Shown: positions 3,510 to 15,023, numbered from the stretch's first letter. The stretch: DNA of 64,000 nt from Methanomicrobiales archaeon (GCA_037137755.1 JBAXJR010000004.1:1-64000), one strand, 5' to 3'. Notes: generated from the letters alone by a model not told the origin. Numbers and translations are program-made.

Positions 3510-6500
3510 ATGGTATACACTGCGGGGTCTCGGTCTCTATTAGGGGTAATTATCCTTCTCTTCCTACTGTCGTGCACGGCGGCGGCAATGGTCCCGGATA
3601 ATATCACCTTTAAATCTGAGGATAACTGGGTGGTGGCAAATGGGGCAGATAGTACCAGGCTAACGATAACCGTTTATAATCAGACCATACCGATGAATGA
3701 GACAAAAGTATCGTTCTTGGTAAATAGTTCGGAGTATGGAACTATCGAGTCGCCACAGGTTACCACAAAATTAGGGAAGGCAACAACCAATTTTACGACA
3801 GCATATAAATCGGGTACGGCCAGGATAACTGCAACCATATCGTACAGAACAAACGATACAGATTTATCCGAATTGGAAAAAACTGTTACATTGGATCAGA
3901 ATATTGATCACGATATAAAAATTACCTGTACCTATTTGTATAATTCCTCCGTAACTGTGGGGACTGGGACACCTATTACCTTTACATTCAGGGATCAGCA
4001 CGGGAATCCAATCGATAACCGGCGGAATGACGATACTCATGAAAGCCTTCCCCCCGAGCAGATGAAACTCGATGTGTCGCTACCCGATATGAGCCATGTA
4101 GACAGGGCCGGGTTCTGGGACGGTACACTCTATCATTTAAACTCGACGATAAACCTCGACCTGAATGGGACCGTTTCATCCATCCTATTTCTGGATACAA
4201 CGACGGGAACTCATTATCTGCATGCGACTCCCGCGAATTTCAAAGTTGCAGGATGGCAACCTGATGGTGCCACCTCATCGGATCACTTTTTCCTAATTCA
4301 TGGGATTGCCAATGGTGAACCGTGGTATTTAACACGGACCATTTTCCCATCGGTAAAGTGGGTTTATGCAGATGGTATACAGCATTTTACCATAGACTAT
4401 GTGTTGAAAGACCGATATGGCAACGGGTTAGAAAATTCAAGAATTGATGTGGATACCCTTGAAAGGATGGGTGGTGCTGAATCCAAATTCAATAGCTCGA
4501 TATATACGAACAGTGTGGGAGAAGCAACGGTCAGTTATGGTCCAAAACAGAAATTAACCTCCTGGGTTACATCCACAGCCGCTGGTAACATAAGTCTCAG
4601 GTATGTCGATGTTGTGGAATTTAAAAACACTACTCCTACGGATATGCTTCTTACTGCATCACCTCAAACACTTGCAAGTCGGGATGCAATAGCATGGTCA
4701 AATGCTACAGTATCTGCTAAAGTGATGGATTCACAAGGAGCAGGTACTTCTGGACAGACTGTGAACTTCACGCTGGTGACCCATAATTCATATCCTGCAG
4801 GTTCCATCATTACACAGTCTAAATTGAATGATGATTCTGGTGTGCATGATACATTGGCATCTGCAGTAACGGATGAAAATGGATATGCTACGATCGAATT
4901 CTACCCGGGATATTTCAACTCAAGTAAAAGCAAAGATTCCACCGAATATTCGGATGTTTATGCTGAATGGACAACACCGGATACAACAGATAAATTCAAT
5001 CTCTCCGTCAGGATATGGTGGAAGAATTATCCGTATTTAAGTGTGAGCACATCCATAAGTCCCACAACGGTAAATGTTACTGATACGGTTGATGTCACCA
5101 TCTATTTGAAAGGTGATGGTTATGCATTTACTCAGTTTAAACCGATTGACGTGATGTTATGTACGGATAGATCGGGGAGTATGCTCCAGAATACGACACA
5201 CCCACTAGATAGCATTAACAATGATGGTCATCATGTGAATGATTGGATTCCATCAAGTCAAAAAAATAATTTTTCGGCGGTTAAAAAAGAATCTACCGAT
5301 GATAGAATGGTACTTGCAATGCGTGCCCAGACGGCATTTGTCAAAAAAATGAATTCTGCACAAGATAAACTTGGACTGGTGACCTTTGGGACACAAACAG
5401 GAACTGTAAGTATTGCAAGTGCGGATGCGGATTATAAGCATTGGGCGGGTGCCGATTATGTCTGGGATTCTACTCATAGTGTATGGGTTGATGGAACTAC
5501 TGATGACGTCGCTTATATCTCCAAAAGTTATCCTGGGAATGGAATAGTATCATATTCCAACAATGGAAATCTCGATAAACCTTTAACGGGACTTTTCAGT
5601 GTCGGTCAAATGTGTGATGTCATAAATAAAACTGTTCCAGCTGGTGGAACACCTACAAGGGAAGGGATTTGGCGTGCTGTTAAGGAATTAAATTCCAAAT
5701 CCACAAATACAATACAGGCTGTTATCCTCCTTACAGACGGGGGGTGGAAAGATGGTGGAGACCCAAGAGGGTTGGTTGCTAAAGATTACACCGGGACAAC
5801 TCGGACTCTCACGAGTTTCACATCGGAAGGTGGACCTGCAGGTGGTGCAATAGATTCTAGTGGTAATAAGAGTGTCATTAAGTGGGCGGCTCAACATGGT
5901 ATAAAAATTTACACCATTGCCGTCGGGAATGAATCTTCAGTTACCCAACCTGAATTGCAGGCGTATGCGACTGAGACAAATGCAAAATTCTACAATGCAG
6001 CATCGGCAGATCAACTTGAGGGAATTTATGATGATATTGCGAAGGTATTGCAGGAAGAAGCGGGGGCTGATGTATATACAAATCTTACATTCGATGAGGT
6101 TAAGGTAGATACCATTATGGTCCCCGCTACGGACGAGTTCAGTTATGTCTCGTCGGACCAGTCTACAATGGTGAAGCAATTCCATGATAAAACCAGCATT
6201 TGGAATCAGAATCTTATCAATCAGAAAGCTGAGTGGGAAGCCGGATCAATGAATTTCAGTATTGGGAAAATGCTTGTTAATGACATCTGGCAGGCAACTT
6301 TCCGGTTAAGGGTGATCAATGAATCTGGTGGGAATATCAAAATATTCAGCCCGGACTATAAAGATTCATATATCAGTTTCGTAAATAATGGTGTTTTAAG
6401 TAAATTATATCTCCCTGATACCTATATTACCGCGAAAGCAGACCTGAAGAGCACCGGTATACAACAGGCAACTCTGGATTATGAATCATCCTCAGATCCC

Positions 6501-6833
6501 GTGACAGTGGTAACTAATGATAAACTCCGTTTTACATGGACCAGGAATTATACCGGGACGAAACAATTATTCGAATTGTACGAAGTATCTATCGATGGAA
6601 TGAACTGGTTGAAGATCGGTGAAAGAACATTATCCGGGGCTGATGCAAAGAATCCGAAAGGTGAATACATCCTTGATTTAACAAATCTCCCCTCAAATCT
6701 GGGTAGTTTGAAAACTGCCGGAGGAATCGAATTCAGGGTCACTGGAAGAGCACCAGATGTTGGTTCTCCTGAGTATTGGAAACCCCCACGTTTCATCCTT
6801 CAACAAGCACGAGGGAAGATTATCCTCGAATAA
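3510..6833 (+). CDS. Secreted Ig-like (Big_1/invasin-type) repeat plus von Willebrand A domain protein, putative adhesin
   Basis: Sec-type signal peptide; Big_1-like segments (ANGADSTRLTITV, ADGIQHFTIDYVLKDRYGN, TDENGYATIEF); MIDAS motif DRSGS, then GGTPT and ILLTDG; many NxS/T sequons. Confidence 0.85.
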   Translation: MVYTAGSRSLLGVIILLFLLSCTAAAMVPDNITFKSEDNWVVANGADSTRLTITVYNQTIPMNETKVSFLVNSSEYGTIESPQVTTKLGKATTNFTTAYKSGTARITATISYRTNDTDLSELEKTVTLDQNIDHDIKITCTYLYNSSVTVGTGTPITFTFRDQHGNPIDNRRNDDTHESLPPEQMKLDVSLPDMSHVDRAGFWDGTLYHLNSTINLDLNGTVSSILFLDTTTGTHYLHATPANFKVAGWQPDGATSSDHFFLIHGIANGEPWYLTRTIFPSVKWVYADGIQHFTIDYVLKDRYGNGLENSRIDVDTLERMGGAESKFNSSIYTNSVGEATVSYGPKQKLTSWVTSTAAGNISLRYVDVVEFKNTTPTDMLLTASPQTLASRDAIAWSNATVSAKVMDSQGAGTSGQTVNFTLVTHNSYPAGSIITQSKLNDDSGVHDTLASAVTDENGYATIEFYPGYFNSSKSKDSTEYSDVYAEWTTPDTTDKFNLSVRIWWKNYPYLSVSTSISPTTVNVTDTVDVTIYLKGDGYAFTQFKPIDVMLCTDRSGSMLQNTTHPLDSINNDGHHVNDWIPSSQKNNFSAVKKESTDDRMVLAMRAQTAFVKKMNSAQDKLGLVTFGTQTGTVSIASADADYKHWAGADYVWDSTHSVWVDGTTDDVAYISKSYPGNGIVSYSNNGNLDKPLTGLFSVGQMCDVINKTVPAGGTPTREGIWRAVKELNSKSTNTIQAVILLTDGGWKDGGDPRGLVAKDYTGTTRTLTSFTSEGGPAGGAIDSSGNKSVIKWAAQHGIKIYTIAVGNESSVTQPELQAYATETNAKFYNAASADQLEGIYDDIAKVLQEEAGADVYTNLTFDEVKVDTIMVPATDEFSYVSSDQSTMVKQFHDKTSIWNQNLINQKAEWEAGSMNFSIGKMLVNDIWQATFRLRVINESGGNIKIFSPDYKDSYISFVNNGVLSKLYLPDTYITAKADLKSTGIQQATLDYESSSDPVTVVTNDKLRFTWTRNYTGTKQLFELYEVSIDGMNWLKIGERTLSGADAKNPKGEYILDLTNLPSNLGSLKTAGGIEFRVTGRAPDVGSPEYWKPPRFILQQARGKIILE

Positions 6834-6874
6834 ATATTTTCTATTGAAATTTTTCGTAAAAGGGGAGTGATCTT

Positions 6875-7474
6875 TCACTCCGATCCTGACACGAACTCTC
6901 CTGAGTATGCATTAAATATGAACGTCTTCGATGTGGTCCCCGATTCAGATGAAATATAATAATATCCATCTCTGATCTCAACTCCATATTGTATATTATT
7001 AGGGTTCGAACCAACACCAGTTACCTTGGATTTCTGGAATTTGAATAAATCAACAGGCGGTATTATGTTATCCGTTTTGATCTCCTTTTCCGGGAGATCT
7101 CCATTCCAAATTCTTGTTGATTCACCATATGGTCCATATTCAAAAAAATAGTTTTGATTATTTACCCTCATCCCAATAATCCATTCACTTGCAAGTCCAT
7201 TGAGATCAACCCCCTGACCTTTAATGTACCGGATACTCGGTGTGGTTTTAGTGTCATTACTCAAATAAAAATATGAATTTGCTGATATTATTGCATCGGA
7301 AAATGAAATATTTCCCGGAATTTCCCTGTTAGTAATATCAGTGATCCCGATCCCTTGGGGGGTTTGTATAGTTGGTTGCTCAAGGAATCCGATACCACCC
7401 AGAAGAAGAAATCCGATCAAAACACCTGCTATCACAACGGGAATAAGGACCGCTGTCAATAATTTAATCTTCAC
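6875..7474 (-). CDS. Hypothetical membrane-anchored protein
   Basis: Likely GTG start at 7474 (MKIKLLTAVLIPVVIAGVLIGFLLLGG, one TM helix); C-terminal FNAYSGE resembles a PepSY-like end. The longer ORF call overlaps the GNAT gene. Confidence 0.65.
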   Translation of the reverse strand: MKIKLLTAVLIPVVIAGVLIGFLLLGGIGFLEQPTIQTPQGIGITDITNREIPGNISFSDAIISANSYFYLSNDTKTTPSIRYIKGQGVDLNGLASEWIIGMRVNNQNYFFEYGPYGESTRIWNGDLPEKEIKTDNIIPPVDLFKFQKSKVTGVGSNPNNIQYGVEIRDGYYYISSESGTTSKTFIFNAYSGEFVSGSE

Positions 7475-7562
7475 ACTAGTCCGTCTCGTCCTTAAGAACC
7501 TTAATACTAATGTTCGTGCGAAACCGGGATATTTATCACTCCTTCCCGACACAGGATCAATA

Positions 7563-8012
7563 ATGCCCAAAATGTCAACCCCCCCAATCACCCGCGAGCT
7601 TACCCATGCCGAATTCCCTCTCGTGAAAGAGGTATGGTACCACTACCACCAGCAGGAGGCCGATCCCACCGAAGACCGCATTTTCGGCACTTTTATAGAC
7701 GGGACGCTTGCCGCCGTCGCACGGTGCAGGCTTCATCCGGACGGGCACGAAGTCGATGGGGTCTTCACCCTGGAAGAGTTTCGCGGGCGTGGCCTTGCCC
7801 GGCTCGTCGTGCAGGCACTGATCGACGCCTGCGGGCATGAAGTGCTGTACATGCACTCGACCCTGCAACTCATCAGTTTCTACAAAACATTCGGCTTTGT
7901 GCCGATCCCCGAAGACCAGCTGCCGCAGATGATAAAGGACCGGTTCAACTTCTGCTTCGGTGAAATGGCCGGGTGCAACGTCTGCCCGATGCGGAGGGAG
8001 GCTGGGATTTGA
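7563..8012 (+). CDS. GNAT family N-acetyltransferase (copy 1, intact)
   Basis: Acetyl-CoA motif A VFTLEEFRGRGLAR and motif B FYKTFGF; ATG at 7563 or 7572. Confidence 0.85.
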   Translation: MPKMSTPPITRELTHAEFPLVKEVWYHYHQQEADPTEDRIFGTFIDGTLAAVARCRLHPDGHEVDGVFTLEEFRGRGLARLVVQALIDACGHEVLYMHSTLQLISFYKTFGFVPIPEDQLPQMIKDRFNFCFGEMAGCNVCPMRREAGI

Positions 8013-8082
8013 ATGGTATTGGTTGTGCCAGAATATAGTCAAAGAACAGAAAAAAAATTTCTGTTGTTCCGGCACGACGAGA

Positions 8083-8311
8083 TTATACGGTAACAGTTTC
8101 AATCCTCACCCGGCTGATAATGAACTCATCATCAAAACGGGACCCGTTCGTTATCCTCCCTTAAGCAGGCGATATGAAGCTCGATTGCGTCTTTGGTATT
8201 CGTAATCGTCTCCTCAACCGTCTCCCCCTGCGAGAAGCATCCAGAAAGCGCCGGAACTTCAGCACAGAATCCGCCTTCTTCAGCTTTGTGGATTATAATC
8301 GTATATTCCAA
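8083..8311 (-). pseudogene. hicB: HicB-family antitoxin, second copy, truncated by a 1-nt frameshift (not in ORF track)
   Basis: Manual translation from TTG 8311: MEYTIIIHKAEEGGFCAEVPALSGCFSQGETVEETITNTKDAIELHIACLREDNERVPF* (stop 8132-8134); removing one T continues DDEFIISRVRIETVTV* to 8083. Confidence 0.8.
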
Positions 8312-8350
8312 GGTACTGGCTCTATCAGGTTTAGAGATGAATGAGGATTC

Positions 8351-8575
8351 TCATAACGCGATCCATTCTTCCCGTGAAATCTCAATCTCCCTGATAATCT
8401 CGCGGATAAGTCCCACGCTGATATCATTACCTGAATGCATCGGGATCGGGATGAGCTTCTTCATTGTCATGTGGACCATCCTTTGATGCCTGCCTCCTGG
8501 GATAGGGCCAATAAAACCCAGTTTGCGAAGTTTTCTGATTACTTCATTTGTACTGAGTGGCGTCAGTCTCGACAT
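8351..8575 (-). CDS. hicA: HicA-family toxin (mRNA interferase)
   Basis: MSRLTPLSTNEVIRKLRKLGF..GGRHQRM..IPIPMH..DISVGLIREIIREIEISREEW; start moved to ATG 8575. Confidence 0.88.
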   Translation of the reverse strand: MSRLTPLSTNEVIRKLRKLGFIGPIPGGRHQRMVHMTMKKLIPIPMHSGNDISVGLIREIIREIEISREEWIAL

Positions 8576-8837
8576 ACTGGATAGTAATCCCCTTAATTGG
8601 TGGTATCTCAAAGCCGAGCTGAAGTGCGAGGAGGAGATTTCCTTCAATAACATCCCGTAAATTCTGTTCTGCCTCTTTTCGCGTATTCCCCTGTGCAAAA
8701 AATCCCGGGCATTCAGGTACCGTTCCAATAAAGATACCCTGGTCATCAGGATGATATTCTGCCCGTTTCAAAGCTTCTTCAACATAGCCAAGAAGGGGAA
8801 AGATCCGAACATTATGAATTGATGCCTGTGCAGACAC
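8544..8837 (-). CDS. hicB: HicB-family antitoxin
   Basis: GTVPECPGFFAQGNTRKEAEQNLRDVIE is the HicB N-domain signature; overlaps the hicA start. Confidence 0.85.
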   Translation of the reverse strand: MSAQASIHNVRIFPLLGYVEEALKRAEYHPDDQGIFIGTVPECPGFFAQGNTRKEAEQNLRDVIEGNLLLALQLGFEIPPIKGITIQYVETDATQYK

Positions 8838-8928
8838 GGTTACTCATTATAGTGTATGGTTATTTGTCCATATACATTCCCCTTCGAGCCACCATTAGGG
8901 GAATTGCACTTCATATCCCAGTCATATA

Positions 8929-9385
8929 ATGGATTCCTCTTTCCACAACCACAACCCCCCTGACCCGCGAACTCCCCCCCGCTGAATTCCCTCTCGTCAA
9001 AGAGGTCTGGTACCACTATCACCAGCAGGAGGCCAACCCCGAAGAAGACCGCATTTTCGGCACCTTTATCGACGGGACGCTTGTCGCCGTCGCACGGTGC
9101 AGACTTCACCCGGACGGGCATGAAGTCGACGGCGTCTTTACCCTTGAAGAATTCCGCGGGCGTGGCCTTGCCCGGCTCGTAGTGCAGGCATTGGTCGATG
9201 AATGCGGTCATGAAGAGCTGTACATGCACTCCACCCTGCAACTCATCAGCTTCTACAAGACATTCGGATTTGTACCCATCCCCGAGGACCAGCTGCCCAG
9301 GATGATCCGGGAACTGTTCCTCTTCTGCTTCGGCGAAATGGCTGGGTGCAACGTATGCCCCATGCGGAGGGAGGTGGGAGGGTGA
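8929..9385 (+). pseudogene. GNAT copy 2: body open, no in-frame canonical start at the 5' end
   Basis: Frame 8930-9385 is stop-free and reads LTRELPPAEFPLVKEVW...CPMRREVGG*; ATG 8929 is out of frame; in-frame TAA at 8927. Confidence 0.75.
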
Positions 9386-9496
9386 GTCAGGATGCAGTCA
9401 GATTGTGGTAAAAATGTGGCGTGAAAGACCGTGGGTAAACGGACAATCAGGGAAATAATTATTGTCAGGAGCGATAGAATATGAACTGGAGAACAG

Positions 9497-9790
9497 ATGA
9501 CACCCCGCGATGAAATCCTCGATCTCCTCAGATCATTACAAAGCGATCTTACCCTACGGTATAAAGTCCGAAGGATCGGAATATTCGGCTCTTTTGCAAG
9601 AATTGAGTCCAGGCCTGACAGTGATGTGGACATACTCGTTGATTTCAATCCCGGCGCGGATCTCTTCGATCTCATCGAACTCTCCCAGTATCTGGAGGAA
9701 AAAATCGGCAGGCATGTGGACCTGGCAACACCCCGGGCACTCAGGCCTGAGATACGGGAAAGCGTCTTCCGGGACGTTGTGTACGCATGA
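9497..9790 (+). CDS. mntA: Minimal nucleotidyltransferase (MNT) antitoxin
   Basis: GIFGSFARIESRPDSDVDILV matches GSx10DxD; 97 aa; ATGA-coupled to the HEPN gene. Confidence 0.9.
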   Translation: MTPRDEILDLLRSLQSDLTLRYKVRRIGIFGSFARIESRPDSDVDILVDFNPGADLFDLIELSQYLEEKIGRHVDLATPRALRPEIRESVFRDVVYA

Positions 9791-10125
9791 GAGAATACCG
9801 CCTTTTCCTGGTTGATATAATGAAGGCCGCGGAAGATATCGAGGTCTTCACCACGGGGATGTCTTTTGAAGAATTCGTTGATGATGATAAGACAATATCA
9901 GCCGTACTCTATAAATTCGCAATAATGGGTGAGGCCACAACAATGCTGACAGATCAGGTCCGTGCACAACATCCTGACATCCCTTGGCGAAGCATAGCAG
10001 GACTGCGTGACAAAGTGATTCATGGGTATATCGGTGTGGATTATGAACTTCTTTGGGAGACAATTGAGTTGAAACTTCCCGCGGTCATAAGAGCTCTTCA
10101 CACCATCCTTGAAAAAGAAAAATGA
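9787..10125 (+). CDS. hepT: HEPN (DUF86) RNase toxin
   Basis: IPWRSIAGLRDKVIHGY matches Rx4HxY. Confidence 0.9.
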   Translation: MREYRLFLVDIMKAAEDIEVFTTGMSFEEFVDDDKTISAVLYKFAIMGEATTMLTDQVRAQHPDIPWRSIAGLRDKVIHGYIGVDYELLWETIELKLPAVIRALHTILEKEK

Positions 10126-10336
10126 TGCAGGATAAATAATTTTGACAAATATCCCCTCTGGTCAACCGTGATCCAGGTCCAATTACTTCCTGAAACAGAA
10201 TTTCCAGAGCGGTAAATATTCAATCCAAACCACACTCTTACCAATGACTGTTTAATATCCTCGTAAGAATGAGAAGATTATGGTGCAAACAGCAGGGAAA
10301 TGAACCGTTTTGGTCTTCATGCATTCCTGTCATATA

Positions 10337-10789
10337 ATGAATTCCTCGTTCCCGGCCGCCCCTCACCCGCGAACTCACCGTATCCGGATTCCCCCTCCTC
10401 AAAGAAGTCTGGTATCACTATCACCAACAGGAGGCGGATCCCGCCGAAGACCGCATATTCGGCATCTTTATAGACGGGACTCTTGCCGCTGTTGCCCAGG
10501 TACCAGGCTTTATCCGGACGGGCACGAAGTCGACGGTGTCTTCACTCTTGAAGAGTTCCGCGGGCGTGGCCTTGCCCGGCTCGTGGTGCAGACGTTGATC
10601 GATGCATGCGGGCATGAAGAGCTGTACATGCACTCGACCCTGCAACTCATCAGCTTCTACAAGACATTCGGTTTTGTGCCGATCCCCGAGGACCAGCTGC
10701 CAAAGATGATCCGGGAACGGTTCCTCTTCTGCTTCGGCGAAATGGCCGGGTGCAATATCTGTCCCATGCGGAGGGAGGCTGGCGGGTGA
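10337..10789 (+). pseudogene. GNAT copy 3 with compensating frameshifts
   Basis: GNAT N-half is read in a different frame from ATG 10337; 2 extra nt at ~10494-10507 return that frame to the GNAT C-half. Confidence 0.75.
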
Positions 10790-11301
10790 GCCCGTCGCTC
10801 CAAATCTTGTCCCAGATCTTGGTCAATCTTGAATTTTAGTTTAGAGGTGAGGTGCATGGAATGTACTCCTGATAGCGGTTGTGTGGGAAATGGATTAAGA
10901 AATGCCGATTTATTCAGAATGTTCCATGGGTGGTCCCAATCTGGCATACTATTACAAAGTATAGTATGATGAAATACAGGTCAGTTGTGTGAAATGGAGC
11001 ATACCAGTCAGATATGCAGGGAATAGAAATAGCAGAACCGTTTAATACAGCAATCATACTAAAAAATGAGGGTGCCCGTCATTTCCGTGAGTACGATAAC
11101 AATCCATGGAACCTTCGAAAATGACCGGAGCAGGGCAGCTGCAAAGCGTCCACAGGAACTAGCGAAGGCGCTTAAATTCTAAACCAGGAAGATCATTCCT
11201 GCTGGGATTGATTTGGTTCTTTTATCTGGTTCTATTCAGATTGACCTTTTTTCCTTGTGCGGATAAGGAGGGAAGTGTCCGGCTCCGGGATTTCCAGGTA
11301 A

Positions 11302-11697
11302 TTATCGAATTCCGGCTGGAATGATCCGTTTTTTGTCCGTTCGGTCAAAATCAGAATCGAAGCTGACAAGCATCAGATCAAATTTTTCTGCAATAACATA
11401 CTGATAGGCATCATCGAAGTCGAGCCCGAACGCCGCTGCCACCTCTTCAACCTGCACGATATCCTCACTGCCTAGGGAGAGAATAGTGATCCCTCCCTCA
11501 CCAAAGAGATCGCAGGCTAATTCTGAAAAGAGGCGGGCTGCGTTTTTCTGGTAGAGAATGATCCCGATTGAATGAAATGCAAGATCGCTGATGTGAAGAT
11601 CTCTGGGAACTCTGGTATTGAACAGAGCCTGGACAGAAGCGGCTTCTTTCTGATCGAGTAACAGTTCGAGAAATATATTGGTATCAAGAAGGTACAA
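11302..11697 (-). CDS. vapC: PIN-domain (VapC-like) toxin
   Basis: YLLDTNIFLE...LDFDDAYQY...LVSFDSDFD with acidic catalytic residues present; TTG start. Confidence 0.9.
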   Translation of the reverse strand: MYLLDTNIFLELLLDQKEAASVQALFNTRVPRDLHISDLAFHSIGIILYQKNAARLFSELACDLFGEGGITILSLGSEDIVQVEEVAAAFGLDFDDAYQYVIAEKFDLMLVSFDSDFDRTDKKRIIPAGIR

Positions 11698-11701
11698 CGT
11701 T

Positions 11702-11914
11702 TCAGTCCCGCCAATCCTGTGCCTTATGCTGGAGCTCCACGGATGTTGTACTGCTTTTGAGGTGGGAGAGTCCCCCTGCCCATGTCAGGCTGAACTTTTT
11801 TGTGCATGTTTTTCTCTTCCGGCGGACTAGCTCTTCAATATAGTGGATTGCGTCCTGCCGGAGGTCAGGGGGGAGTTCGTCAATCATCCGGTACACGGTT
11901 TCTGAAGTGGTCAT
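11702..11914 (-). CDS. DUF2281-like antitoxin partner of the PIN toxin
   Basis: MIDELPPDLRQDAIHYIEEL...FSLTWAGGL...TSVELQH; start moved to ATG 11914; 4 nt upstream of the PIN gene. Confidence 0.8.
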   Translation of the reverse strand: MTTSETVYRMIDELPPDLRQDAIHYIEELVRRKRKTCTKKFSLTWAGGLSHLKSSTTSVELQHKAQDWRD

Positions 11915-12098
11915 GCAGGTTTCCTCTTCTCGTTCATTTAATAATTGGTATTCCTTGTGCAATAATATATAGTTCCTCTCACGCATTCCCAAAGTCGATA
12001 GTCCTCCATGGAATGCTCTCTGCATGAGTCCCTTAAACAACCCCCTAATCTCTTTCCCGACGCCCGCTTTCCGCAACCGATTGCGGGTTACTTGTGGT

Positions 12099-12439
12099 GG
12101 CCAACCCCGCCGAAGACCGCATATTCGTCACTTTCATCGACGGGACGAATTGCCTCCGCCGCACGGTACAGACTTCATCCTGACTGGCATGAAGCCGACG
12201 GTGTCTTCACGCTTGAAGAATTCCGTGGTCACTGACTCCCCAGGCTAGTAGTGCAGGCACTGATCGACACCTGCGGGCATGAGGTACTGTATATGCATTC
12301 AACCCTGTAACTCATCAGTTTCTACAAGACCTTCGGGTTCGTTCCCATCCCTGAATACCGGCTGCCGCAGATGATAAAGGACCGGTTCACTTCTGCTTCG
12401 GTGAAATGGCCAGGTGCAAACGGTCTGCCCGATGCGGAG
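12099..12439 (+). pseudogene. GNAT copy 4, 5'-truncated and degraded
   Basis: Homology starts at ~12099; TGA 12233-12235, TAA 12308-12310 (CAA in other copies), 1-nt deletion in CGGTTCA(A)CTTC. Confidence 0.85.
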
Positions 12440-12497
12440 TGTGGCGACTCCGCGATCAAGAAGAAAGATACTTTCCCCGATACAGGGATGAGTATAC

Positions 12498-12899
12498 ATG
12501 CGATCATCAACGACTGATCCACTCCGGATTACCCAGGAAGGGATTTCATCGTATTCCCGGCGTGTACTTGCCGTAGTCCTTGGAATAACGCTTCTTACCG
12601 GCTCATTGTTATCTACCGGCTGTACAACCCCTGGAAAAGATCCCGTTTCAGGCACATGGGAATGGTCGGATGGGAAAGGGTATACCGAGCGTTACACCTT
12701 CAATGCAGATCATTCATTTAACGCAAAAGCACTCGGTTCGGAGTTTAACGGCACATGGGAAACCGTCTCATCAGGACATTACCTGGTGACCTATAGAAAC
12801 CAGAATGACATGGGACAAAATGAGACACTCACCGAAGGACTCCTCTACGATAGTAGCACAGATGCGATTTACTTCCCTGCCCATTATCGGGTGGTGTGA
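12498..12899 (+). CDS. Putative lipoprotein
   Basis: Hydrophobic stretch ending in lipobox-like LSTGC; GTW beta-repeat motifs. Confidence 0.65.
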   Translation: MRSSTTDPLRITQEGISSYSRRVLAVVLGITLLTGSLLSTGCTTPGKDPVSGTWEWSDGKGYTERYTFNADHSFNAKALGSEFNGTWETVSSGHYLVTYRNQNDMGQNETLTEGLLYDSSTDAIYFPAHYRVV

Positions 12900-12961
12900 A
12901 GTGATGTTGCGAGTACAAGGGTTTTAATGAAAGAAAAAAGGTTGGGATGATGTTCCCCGGT

Positions 12962-13258
12962 TCATACTTTTGGTTTTCGTTTCTTTCCCGCCTGCGGTGT
13001 GGTTTTCTCATTTTTCGGAAGTGGTATGCATTCTTCATCCGGCCACTCATCTTCGAACATGAGGTCTTCTTCCATGCATTCAGCCATCCGAAGGACGTTC
13101 TGGACAACCTCCAGCCGTGCATTTGCGGCCAGGACACACATCCCCTGATCTATGTTAAACAACCCGCCTACAGGCAGTCCCGGTGTCGTTTCATCGTTTA
13201 TCCACATGGGGCAGTCCTCTTCGGCACAAGTTTGACTGAGATCTCGCCAGCACTTCAT
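12962..13258 (-). CDS. Hypothetical Cys-rich acidic protein
   Basis: MKCWRDLSQTCAEEDCPMW...GMCVL; acidic then basic tail; TATA-like TTAAAT on the minus strand upstream. Confidence 0.55.
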   Translation of the reverse strand: MKCWRDLSQTCAEEDCPMWINDETTPGLPVGGLFNIDQGMCVLAANARLEVVQNVLRMAECMEEDLMFEDEWPDEECIPLPKNEKTTPQAGKKRKPKV

Positions 13259-13510
13259 GATCAGTACCGTTCGATATTGAGCAATTTAATAATGAGTGCC
13301 TTCCGGTATCGTATTCAGATGAGAATGGTAGCAGGTTGAGTTTTGCTACACCGCCTTTCCTTCTTCCCGTTCTTTATCATTTTTTATCAGTAGAGGGAAA
13401 TATTTCATGAGGCCGTACCTTCCAGGTCAATTGTGAAATCCTCGCTTCATTTCACCTCCCTGTTCAAGATCAATCTCATCCTTCAAGTCCTTTGAAACAG
13501 ATATGTCACT

Positions 13511-14125
13511 ATGGTACAATCTCCAGCCCCGATACCGTCATTCTCTGATGCGGTTACGTTCCATGGTCATAGCTGTCCCGGTCTTGCGCTCGGTTACCGG
13601 GCTGCATTAATCGCCCTTGAAGAGCTCAGGAGTGATCCTTCGCACGACGAGGAACTGGTCGCAATCGTGGAGAACGATGCCTGTGGGATCGATGCACTCC
13701 AGGTCGTAACCGGATGCACCGCAGGAAAGGGAAACCTCATATTCCTTGACTACGGAAAACATGTCTATACCCTTTTCAACCGGCGGAACGGGAAAGCGGT
13801 CCGGGTTGCAACGAAAGCTTCATTCTCTACCGCATCTCTCGATCCGGCATTTGGCGATCTCAGGACAAAGGTGATGTCAGGGAACGCAACAGCCGAAGAA
13901 ATGGAACAATTCGAAAAACACCGTGATGGGGTTTGTCATGCAATCCTCACGGTCCCCTACCATGATATGTTTTCAGTCCGGCACACCGGGATGCAGGTCC
14001 CCGTCCCGGCGACGATATACAAATCCGTTCCCTGTGACTGCTGTGGTGAGATGGTATCAGAACACCGGGTAGTAACCGTTGGTCGGAAAACGCTCTGTAT
14101 CCCGTGTTCAGAGAAAAAAGAGTAA
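13511..14125 (+). CDS. FmdE/FwdE family protein with C-terminal zinc finger
   Basis: FHGHSCPGLALG, ENDACGIDALQVVTGCTAGKGNL, CDCCGE...CIPC. Confidence 0.9.
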   Translation: MVQSPAPIPSFSDAVTFHGHSCPGLALGYRAALIALEELRSDPSHDEELVAIVENDACGIDALQVVTGCTAGKGNLIFLDYGKHVYTLFNRRNGKAVRVATKASFSTASLDPAFGDLRTKVMSGNATAEEMEQFEKHRDGVCHAILTVPYHDMFSVRHTGMQVPVPATIYKSVPCDCCGEMVSEHRVVTVGRKTLCIPCSEKKE

Positions 14126-14294
14126 TCCTTATGCCCCTGCTGCTCCCAAGGATATCCCGGATGAGTATTGCCAGGCGTACAGAACCCCCTGAAGGTCAGC
14201 TCCCACACGGTAGCGGTTTCTAGTCAGGGATCGTAATAAACGGCAGCTATCATTCCGCACAGCGCCCGGCAAAAAGGAACGTAGTAAATCCTGC

Positions 14295-15023
14295 TTAAAA
14301 TTCAAGCAGGTCCATCGCAGTGGCAGGGTCCTCGCAGATTCCAGGGCGGGCCTTCAACAAACGCATCACTTTTCTTAACCGTGCTTTCAGCCGGCTGTTT
14401 TCTGCTTCCAGCCGTTTCATCCGCTGGTACATCGGCTCCCTGCCCCCGGCTCCGCAGAGGCTCGCCACGTACTGTTTGAGGAGGCGGTCGGCGGTGTTAT
14501 GCCGCCGTGGGATCCACTGGATCTCGATGGTTAATTCCTTTCCACGGATAAGGTCCTGGACTTCGACCGATTTTTTTACAAATGCAGGAGATTTTGACCT
14601 GCATTCGTCGGTCAGGTGCCAGACCACGGTCTGGCTGTCAGTGCGTATCCGGGCGTGTGACCGTGGTGGCAGGTTTTCAAGCGCGAGGATGATGGCATTG
14701 AACTCCGCTTCGTTATTCGAGGCCCCCTTCTCGTACATGAAGTAGACCTCTTCACCGGGGAACAGGGCCACGCTATGGCCATCCCCGCTCCCGTCGACCG
14801 TGATGTCCAGGCGCTCATGTGCCTGGGTGTCATCAGGGGATGGTATTCCCTGGAATCTTTGTTTTAGCGGATAAAAGGGGTGGAAAAGAGTGGTTCCGTC
14901 CGAAAAAAGTGAGAGTATGGGGAGAGAGGGGTTCCCATCAGGGAATTGGACCATTGGGGCATGTTCCCGTGGCAGCAGGTTATGACCTCCCCGAGACCTA
15001 TGATAGAATGATAGATTCACCAC
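14295..15023 (-). CDS. RNase HI-like domain protein with C-terminal coiled coil
   Basis: VDGS, SNNEAEFNA, RTDSQ, WIPRRHNTADRL; start uncertain and probably downstream of 15023. Confidence 0.75.
   Translation of the reverse strand: MVNLSFYHRSRGGHNLLPREHAPMVQFPDGNPSLPILSLFSDGTTLFHPFYPLKQRFQGIPSPDDTQAHERLDITVDGSGDGHSVALFPGEEVYFMYEKGASNNEAEFNAIILALENLPPRSHARIRTDSQTVVWHLTDECRSKSPAFVKKSVEVQDLIRGKELTIEIQWIPRRHNTADRLLKQYVASLCGAGGREPMYQRMKRLEAENSRLKARLRKVMRLLKARPGICEDPATAMDLLEF

Follow-up and report, generated by a model that had tools for sequence, protein, structure and literature searches.

Toxin–antitoxin modules interleaved with copies of a GNAT acetyltransferase gene at a conserved chromosomal site of an uncultured Methanoregulaceae genus

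Toxin–antitoxin (TA) modules are very numerous in archaea, and how they spread and accumulate without visible mobility genes is an old open question. A locus in the first 64,000 nucleotides (nt) of contig JBAXJR010000004.1 of an uncultured lake methanogen, a Methanomicrobiales archaeon (GCA_037137755.1), raises this question in compact form, as four direct copies of an acetyltransferase gene of the GNAT family alternate here with three TA modules. What are these repeats, and what has assembled them? In the following, the window denotes this whole stretch of 64,000 nt, C4 its contig, G000 the source genome and C62 a second contig of that genome; other labels in G and L refer to genomes and loci of relatives. 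The GNAT repeats in the window are real and are supported across species, and the array occupies one conserved chromosomal site of an uncultured Methanoregulaceae genus. As to its origin, we somewhat favour a cassette array that is built and reshuffled without a recombinase: the GNAT repeats would be the substrates of recombination, and addiction modules would keep the intervals from being lost.

The repeated gene has 149 codons and its four copies span positions 7563–12447 with mutual identities of 83–87%. A repeat search gave copy spacings of 1373, 1404 and 1665 nt, with 83–86% identity over 240 nt, and no inverted repeats of at least 30 nt in the region 5500–15000. In a profile search the copies were located at 7571–8012, 8943–9385, 10350–10789 and 12035–12447, but for copy 4 the homology detected by blastn is unambiguous only from 12096, corresponding to nt 93 of the reference, and about the first 90 nt of the gene are missing. 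Copy 1 exceeds the cut-offs of several GNAT family models (Acetyltransf_1, 46.5 bits with a cut-off of 20.7; Acetyltransf_10, 34.0 bits; Acetyltransf_7, 32.6 bits) and its closest solved structure is 3ec4_A (9.9e-08), while NCBIfam offers no specific name for the gene (top score 17.8 bits versus cut-offs above 150). The only ATG near the beginning of copy 2 (region 8915–8985) is one base off frame, directly ahead of a run of six C. An initial annotation of the locus, made from the sequence, had described copy 1 as intact, copy 2 as startless, copy 3 as frameshifted and copy 4 as truncated with stops, all of which is borne out by the repeat, profile and open reading frame (ORF) checks (Table 1). 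Its further statement that the copies decay with distance from copy 1 is true in the window and roughly true in the relative G010.

Each of the three gaps between copies holds one TA module, with the orientations −, + and − as first annotated, and all of the families score above the curated Pfam cut-offs: 47.6 bits for HicA (cut-off 27), 63 for UPF0150/HicB, 49.9 for NTP_transf_2, 84.7 for HepT-like, 53.6 for PIN and 45.1 for DUF2281. On the basis of these matches, the modules are assigned to the type II/VII TA families HicAB, MNT–HepT and PIN–DUF2281. The layout is that of two-gene operons, MNT and HepT overlapping by 4 nt and PIN and DUF2281 being separated by 4 nt; the HicB and HicA genes overlap by 32 nt, provided that HicA starts at 8575.

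Table 1. Features of the array and its flanks (positions in the window; aa, amino acids)
Feature	Position	Strand	Description
Left-flank surface-type protein gene	3510–6833		1107 aa, Big_1 domains, weak VWA match
Left-flank gene (cl5, cluster 5)	6875–7591	−	238 aa; beside the first GNAT copy in relatives, 9 loci
GNAT copy 1	7563–8012	+	Intact 149-aa acetyltransferase ORF with native upstream region; Pfam Acetyltransf_1, 5.1e-12
hicB'	8132–8311	−	Truncated HicB-like antitoxin gene, 59 aa; Pfam HicB_lk_antitox, 3.2e-13, profile positions 1–56 of 123
HicA toxin gene	8351–8575	−	74 aa from internal ATG, ORF open to 8746; Pfam HicA_toxin, 1.8e-12, profile positions 2–58 of 58
HicB/UPF0150 antitoxin gene	8544–8837	−	97 aa; Pfam UPF0150, 2.5e-17
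GNAT copy 2	8943–9385	+	148 open codons, no in-frame ATG, GTG or TTG; 88% aa identity to copy 1
MNT nucleotidyltransferase gene (antitoxin of HepT pair)	9497–9790	+	Pfam NTP_transf_2, 4.3e-13
HepT (HEPN) RNase toxin gene	9787–10125	+	Pfam HepT-like, 5.4e-24
GNAT copy 3	10350–10789	+	+2 frameshift at about codon 55, common to other copies and species
PIN-domain toxin gene	11302–11697	−	Pfam PIN, 4.4e-14
DUF2281 antitoxin-like gene	11702–11914	−	70 aa from internal ATG, ORF open to 12076; Pfam DUF2281, 1.5e-11
GNAT copy 4	12096–12447	+	5'-truncated; one TGA, one TAA, frameshifts; adjoins native right flank
Right-flank gene	12498–12899	+	133 aa; directly after GNAT in single-copy relatives L102 and L103
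Right-flank FmdE-domain gene (cluster 12)	13511–14125	+	Pfam FmdE, 1.4e-45; conserved in 7 loci

The GNAT gene is present in all 12 other genomes of the genus and is matched at E ≤ 1e-10 in 53 of the 61 genomes searched; outside the genus it is single. At least half of the sampled words were recovered in nine lake-water or freshwater metagenome runs. The same locus can be recognized in G000, G010, G007, G001, G004, G009 and G011 from the 238-aa gene and a large Big_1/VWA protein on the left and from the FmdE-domain gene and an RNase H-like gene on the right, with the 133-aa gene and a 98-aa gene between them in some genomes. Copy number at this site ranges from one (G009, L102, L103) through three (G004, on a 193-kb contig) up to at least six (G010, on a 52.7-kb contig). 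The single-copy sites are free of cargo: GNAT lies 135 nt from FmdE in G009, and GNAT, the 133-aa gene and FmdE follow one another in L102 and L103. The initial annotation had named relatives with one to n copies and different TA cargo as the support to look for, and such relatives exist at the same locus, varying in both cargo and order. No further array of this kind was found in G000 outside C4 and C62 by a genome-wide search, which returned tandem paralogues and internal gene repeats only, and the GNAT protein, when scanned against IMG/VR, yielded 21 pattern matches and no relative.

A census of the cargo covered 56 records, comprising 19 genome loci and 37 of 80 metagenome loci; those kept are genus-level copies or fragments thereof, and the other 43, mostly single genes of other genera with 50–66% identity, were left out. 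Of the metagenome contigs retained, 27 of 37 carry between two and five copies, and the copies on any one record all lie on the same strand. The 64 inter-copy gaps reduce to 45 that are distinct at 97% identity. Cargo labels were spread by BLASTP from Pfam-tested seeds and denote family assignment only, with no implication that a pair is intact; on this footing every one of the 45 distinct gaps contains a labelled gene, 43 contain a TA-family gene and two contain only an AAA14/DUF4143 ATPase. More than 15 cargo types occur among the 45 intervals, in both orientations, including several kinds of HicAB, MNT/HepT, HTH-MNT/HEPN, PIN/DUF2281, DUF2281/MazF, Phd/ParE, ParE- or RelE/YafQ-like genes and a GNAT-toxin-like gene with a 55-aa partner.

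Two of these cargo types deserve a separate remark. The AAA14/DUF4143 ATPase is the sole cargo at L030 (12155–13429) and L107 (1742–3050), and also lies directly upstream of the single GNAT gene in another genus (L027, 111–1145). The GNAT-toxin-like gene (L115, 1124–1829; L146, 1681–2389), which has weak Pfam GNAT matches, stands behind a 55-aa gene without a family, such that in L115 and L146 a GNAT-type toxin module sits between housekeeping GNAT copies. The repeated GNAT gene itself stands alone beside FmdE (G009) or the 133-aa gene (L102, L103), with no adjacent antitoxin pairing of the TacT/AtaT type.

The window probably shows only part of the array. G000 is a metagenome bin of 106 contigs (90.6% complete), and its contig C62 (10,993 nt) holds four further GNAT copies (loci L003, L005, L007 and L008), between which lie HicB, HTH-MNT/HEPN, a second MNT/HepT pair, a PRiA4-like gene, DUF2281/MazF and a decayed HicBA. 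The first 3589 nt of C62 recur at its end with 100% identity, giving a unit of 7404 nt with the four GNAT copies. Positions 9553–10779 of the window (MNT/HepT and most of copy 3) are identical to C62:3590–4817, whereas the sequences on either side of this 1.2-kb node are only 80–95% alike between the two contigs; the depth of the node is 45–61, compared with 24–29 for the flanks, in the public runs X1 and X2. Two independent metagenome contigs (L172 and L113, 99.97–100% identical to the window or to C62) both end at the node. Since the node is identical on C4 and C62, the left-to-right joins across it, and hence the order of the copies, are ambiguous in the assembly. The simplest reading is that one genome contains the 1.2-kb stretch in two places and that C62 forms the inner part of the window array, which would bring the number of GNAT copies to eight. 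C62 could alternatively be a strain variant or a 7.4-kb circle. The circle was not adopted, as the terminal repeat is equally explained by a loop in the assembly graph and no circle-specific junction was found; the reads were examined as Logan contigs, which are too short to phase the node or show circles. To the right of the node, a single 3650-nt contig of run X2 spans 11155–13400 without a difference, so that PIN, copy 4 and the right flank are contiguous. Apparent joints from 7817 to 10598 and from 7817 to 10607 have one side of only 20 nt and were set aside as cross-matches between copies. Two further odd joints in run X7, from 7568 to 8946 and from 10302 back to 8955, are carried by a single contig each, at a depth of 3–9.

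The copies display a polarity, although the counts were not dereplicated and exaggerate how many events took place. The promoter-proximal copy remains a working gene and later ones are mostly dead. Every one of the 12 first copies that adjoin the left flank and can be seen at both ends is full length. Non-first copies retain the 3' end in 84 of 91 cases, while their 5' start falls at or before profile position 25 in 45 of 78, between 26 and 60 in 21 and later still in 12. Of the seven copies cut at the 3' end, five are the last copy seen on their record. In G000, G004, L127 and L177 the last copy is beside the native right flank. Each cargo type has its own junction to the GNAT copy that follows and this junction is constant across species: HicBA is followed by a copy that begins at nt 27, the HEPN stop of HTH-MNT/HEPN overlaps a TTG start, and the junctions after hic and after MNT/HepT have about 45 nt of upstream sequence in common. 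Overall, the junctions are scattered between a point 45 nt ahead of the start and positions past nt 340, and no common core sequence was found at them. A run of 5–8 C occurs at codons 5–8 across the copies (in copy 2, six in G000 and five in G010, at L030 9640–9700), and we would guess at this run as a candidate fragile spot.

Several disabling lesions are shared. The +2 shift at codon 55 is found in copy 3 of the window and in three copies of the second contig (C62_a, C62_b and C62_c), and G003_200 and G012_187_2 have a comparable insertion at this position; a +2 shift at codon 139 is common to seven copies of G000, G010, G003 and G012; and a gap of about 50 nt (split profile match 140/190) recurs in G003, G012 and L106. 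Since the same lesions are seen in several copies and species, copies have been propagated in the dead state.

The copies recombine with each other, as is evident from the mosaic copy C62_c. Over nt 121–345, 218 of its 227 positions agree with copy 3 and 200 with copy 1; over nt 346–450 the closer match is copy 1, with 99 of 105 positions compared with 86 for copy 3. In a tree of 27 copies (three short fragments were left out), 12 of the 24 inner branches are unresolved and an order of events is not derivable; the five near-complete copies of G010 nevertheless form one clade (support 97/90), those of G012 cluster together with G002, and five of the eight copies of G000 cluster by genome more weakly. 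The G000 copies are 82–90% alike and as distant from each other as from those of G010. Import of copies 2–4 as a whole from distant lineages was considered and rejected in view of this weak grouping with copies of their own genome. Cassette order also varies among species: hic, GNAT and MNT/HepT follow one another in G000, L100 and L107; both modules lie in one gap in reversed order in L040, L105, L109 and L146; and three other cassettes separate hic from MNT/HepT in G010.

Cargo genes are more alike between species than the housekeeping genes of the flanks. Between G004 and G010, HicB is 99.1% and HicA 96.4% identical, compared with 86.5–87.5% for the flanks; the corresponding values between G000 and G010 are 97.5% for HicA, 96.6% for HicB and 96.9% for MNT versus 85–94%, and those between G000 and G001 are about 88% for the cargo versus 71–78%. 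Cargo has therefore been exchanged between species at the locus in recent times.

The substitution pattern of the copies is puzzling. The first copies of G000 and G010 share 95% of their amino acids and 87% of their DNA, with 0.03 changes per site at codon positions 1 and 2, and the share of differences at third positions is 0.78–0.89 among first-copy orthologues compared with 0.57–0.74 in non-first copies. For copy 2, in which the ATG is off frame in both genomes, the comparison of G000 with G010 gives 0.31 changes per site at third codon positions and 0.055 at the first two. Such a bias would require either gene conversion from a live copy or non-first copies that are, or recently were, functional; plain neutral fossils were rejected as a description of copies 2–4 on these grounds.

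No match to PF00589, PF00239, PF01609 or PF07282 was found on C4 or C62, other transposase families not having been searched; the initial annotation had noted no integrase or transposase in the window. Elsewhere in G000 there are 11 matches to tyrosine recombinases (PF00589) and one to serine recombinases, all on other contigs, and no recombinase was found in the array region of G010. One of the tyrosine-recombinase matches (C18:42461–42943) adjoins a 235-nt direct repeat (90% identity; C18 43017–43251 and 44554–44788, 1.5 kb apart), which may mark the ends of a small integrated element.

Taken together, the mosaic copy, the varying cassette order and the duplicated 1.2-kb stretch lead us to lean towards recombination on the repeats themselves. 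According to this proposal, a unit consisting of GNAT or its 3' part and the module behind it would be copied or recombined in at the first copy, with a sister chromosome or the DNA of a relative as its source. Its other end would be sealed by illegitimate recombination close to where the old copy begins, and the old copy would thereby be moved downstream and lose its start. Unequal crossing-over and gene conversion on the 430-nt repeats would then duplicate, delete and reorder cassettes, and intervals with an addiction module would persist because looping out would kill the cell. A dedicated recombinase would not be required; polyploidy and gene conversion occur in archaea. A bolder version, which we advance tentatively as a possibility, is that of a 'homology integron' in which TA units travel between species with a copy of the host gene as a homing arm, insert by host homologous recombination and break repair and push the older copy downstream, the interval being guarded by addiction. 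In that case the dead gene copies would be working recombination sites of a cassette platform and not mere scars.

A number of observations weigh against recombination on the GNAT repeats as the builder of the array. The census records include relatives, such that independent events are far fewer than the copies counted. Several records have two modules within one gap. In G007, one GNAT gene is followed by two MNT/HepT modules with no GNAT copy or remnant between them; in G001 (L032, C5), MNT/HepT lies at 5611–6299 between FmdE and the RNase H-like gene; and in L177 it lies at 1458–2200 between the 133-aa gene and FmdE. These three cases imply that the whole site is a TA hot spot and that GNAT repeats are not required for landing. 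At 82–90% identity, the G000 repeats are poorly matched for homologous recombination to work efficiently. Between G004 and G010, the tract of high identity comprises the two cargo genes and drops near the cargo edges, not clearly inside GNAT, and this exchange therefore need not have used GNAT homology. The third-position bias of the non-first copies does not fit simple long-dead scars. The idea of the initial annotation that GNAT acts as a homology landing pad is thus supported in part by the mosaic copy, the duplicated stretch and the changing order of cassettes, but does not account for TA modules that also land without GNAT separators.

These same modules are the starting point for an account in which the GNAT copies are passive: TA modules would reach a hot spot by an unrelated route, tandem duplication of GNAT together with a module would create the repeats and TA activity would block their deletion. 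The clustering of copies by genome in G010, and more weakly of five of the eight in G000, is what such duplication would produce, the MNT/HepT stretch present twice at 100% identity may be a plain recent duplication, and the cross-species tract of high identity stops at the cargo edges. However, duplication in place would repeat the cargo, yet 45 distinct intervals with more than 15 cargo types are seen; cassette order differs among species that share cassettes, and the mosaic copy records exchange inside the repeats. We regard this account as rather unlikely. A recombinase encoded elsewhere in the genome might instead dock cassettes at a site close to the beginning of GNAT and leave behind one gene copy per insertion, much as integrases dock at tRNA genes and serine recombinases inside coding genes. 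About half of the junction classes do lie within 60 nt of the gene start, beside the C run, and G000 has its tyrosine- and serine-recombinase matches on other contigs. Such a system is nonetheless improbable given junctions that are spread over the gene and its upstream region with no common core, the duplication of nearly the whole 430-nt gene in place of a short att core, and the lack of a recombinase on C4, C62 or the G010 array region and of an inverted repeat of at least 30 nt.

Could the copies be functional instead? The open frame and protein-like substitutions of copy 2 in both G000 and G010 would suit modules of three parts, in which each GNAT acts with the adjoining TA pair, for example by acetylating the toxin, the antitoxin or the target, as would the fusion of the closest relatives in other families to two Usp stress domains; outside Methanoregulaceae, the nearest relatives of the GNAT gene form the C-terminal domain of proteins with two Usp domains, so that the acetyltransferase may have a role linked to stress. 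However, frameshifts or truncations affect most of the non-first copies, the cargo families are unrelated and face both ways, and GNAT occurs without TA neighbours in G009, L102, L103 and other genera, which makes this explanation very improbable. We attach still less weight to a store of silent copies that donate to the expressed GNAT by gene conversion, as pilS does to pilE: one mosaic copy and third-position-biased substitutions would be expected of it, but the expressed copy is strongly conserved (95% aa identity between G000 and G010), which is the opposite of a variable antigen. An equally remote explanation is that the repeats are an artefact in which strain variants of a single GNAT locus have been merged. 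The fragmentation of the G000 bin into 106 contigs, the unphased node common to two of them and the recurrence of the beginning of C62 at its end would all allow for this. Against it, the copies differ by 13–18% and each has unique cargo on both sides, like arrays occupy the same locus on the long contigs of G010 and G004, 27 of the 37 metagenome contigs analysed carry several copies, and pieces spanning the junctions are found at single-copy depth in four runs from four studies.

Among known systems, the closest analogue in form to the GNAT array is the orphan-cassette array of rhs/cdiA loci. In such arrays a full main gene heads a series of units that start with startless, 5'-truncated fragments of that gene; the fragments provide a few hundred bases of homology for recombination with the main gene, and cassettes are exchanged between strains (PMC3967940). 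The GNAT array is alike in having an intact copy 1 followed by copies 2–4 that lack a start or a 5' end, and in that the start lies past profile position 25 in 33 of 78 non-first copies. In the rhs/cdiA arrays the toxins are fused in frame to the fragment, so that recombination switches the toxin expressed (PMC3967940), whereas the GNAT copies end at their own stop and are followed by free-standing TA operons in either orientation. Moreover, what is repeated here, in an archaeal host, is an unrelated gene for a cytoplasmic acetyltransferase.

Integrons are defined by the IntI tyrosine recombinase together with short folded attC sites and carry cassettes mostly in one orientation; work proposing that addiction modules stabilize integron arrays is also cited there (PMC9668308). 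The GNAT locus resembles integron arrays, including archaeal and TA-rich ones, in gathering small modules of varying content and addiction cargo at one site, with a repeated element between them. In contrast, its separators are gene copies of 430 nt, its junctions lie at varying positions, its cargo faces both ways and a recombinase of the IntI type (PF00589) was not found on C4 or C62. The label of an integron-like array given to it at first is thus apt for the layout only. The inverted-repeat scan described above and an Rfam scan of the whole window (0 matches) were empty, but neither is attC-specific and short attC sites in the intervals are possible.

Integrative elements may also accrete in tandem at the ends of tRNA, tmRNA or protein genes, and every insertion then duplicates the gene end. 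Features shared with the GNAT array would be repeated arrival at a single gene, the intact copy kept at one end and the displaced partial copies that mark older arrivals. In such elements the repeat is a short att core or a gene end, tens to about 150 nt long, and is made by an integrase that each element brings with it, where the GNAT units have almost the whole gene and no integrase. In bacterial transformation experiments, homology-facilitated illegitimate recombination joins one homologous anchor to one illegitimate join. It would yield a constant 3' side and a variable 5' junction, as in the units of the array, but is not known as the builder of a standing array. Word-based literature searches, with supplements outside their scope, found no published account of archaeal loci in which TA modules alternate with copies of a host gene.

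The locus offers a natural series that begins with the cargo-free site, passes through a single copy with cargo and ends in arrays of six or more units. Its dated scars, namely truncation points, shared frameshifts and the mosaic copy, let the order of events be read. If host recombination on a repeated gene suffices for an integron-like platform, similar arrays would be worth seeking at other genes, and TA addiction would gain a concrete role in stabilizing tandem repeats that are otherwise prone to collapse.

Among the flanking genes, the 238-aa gene has no Pfam or NCBIfam match and the 133-aa gene no family match, and NCBIfam left three flank genes without a match. A scan for sigma-70 promoters and terminators returned 11 promoter-like sites compared with 6.7 expected and was dropped, the model not being meaningful for an archaeon. 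In other Methanomicrobiales families, the proteins at L025 (625–1935) and L021 (1480–2874) have the arrangement Usp-Usp-GNAT and a length of 436–464 aa. Across species of the genus, the identity of the 1107-aa Big_1/VWA protein on the left of the array amounts to only some 30%, a divergence far beyond that of the right flank.

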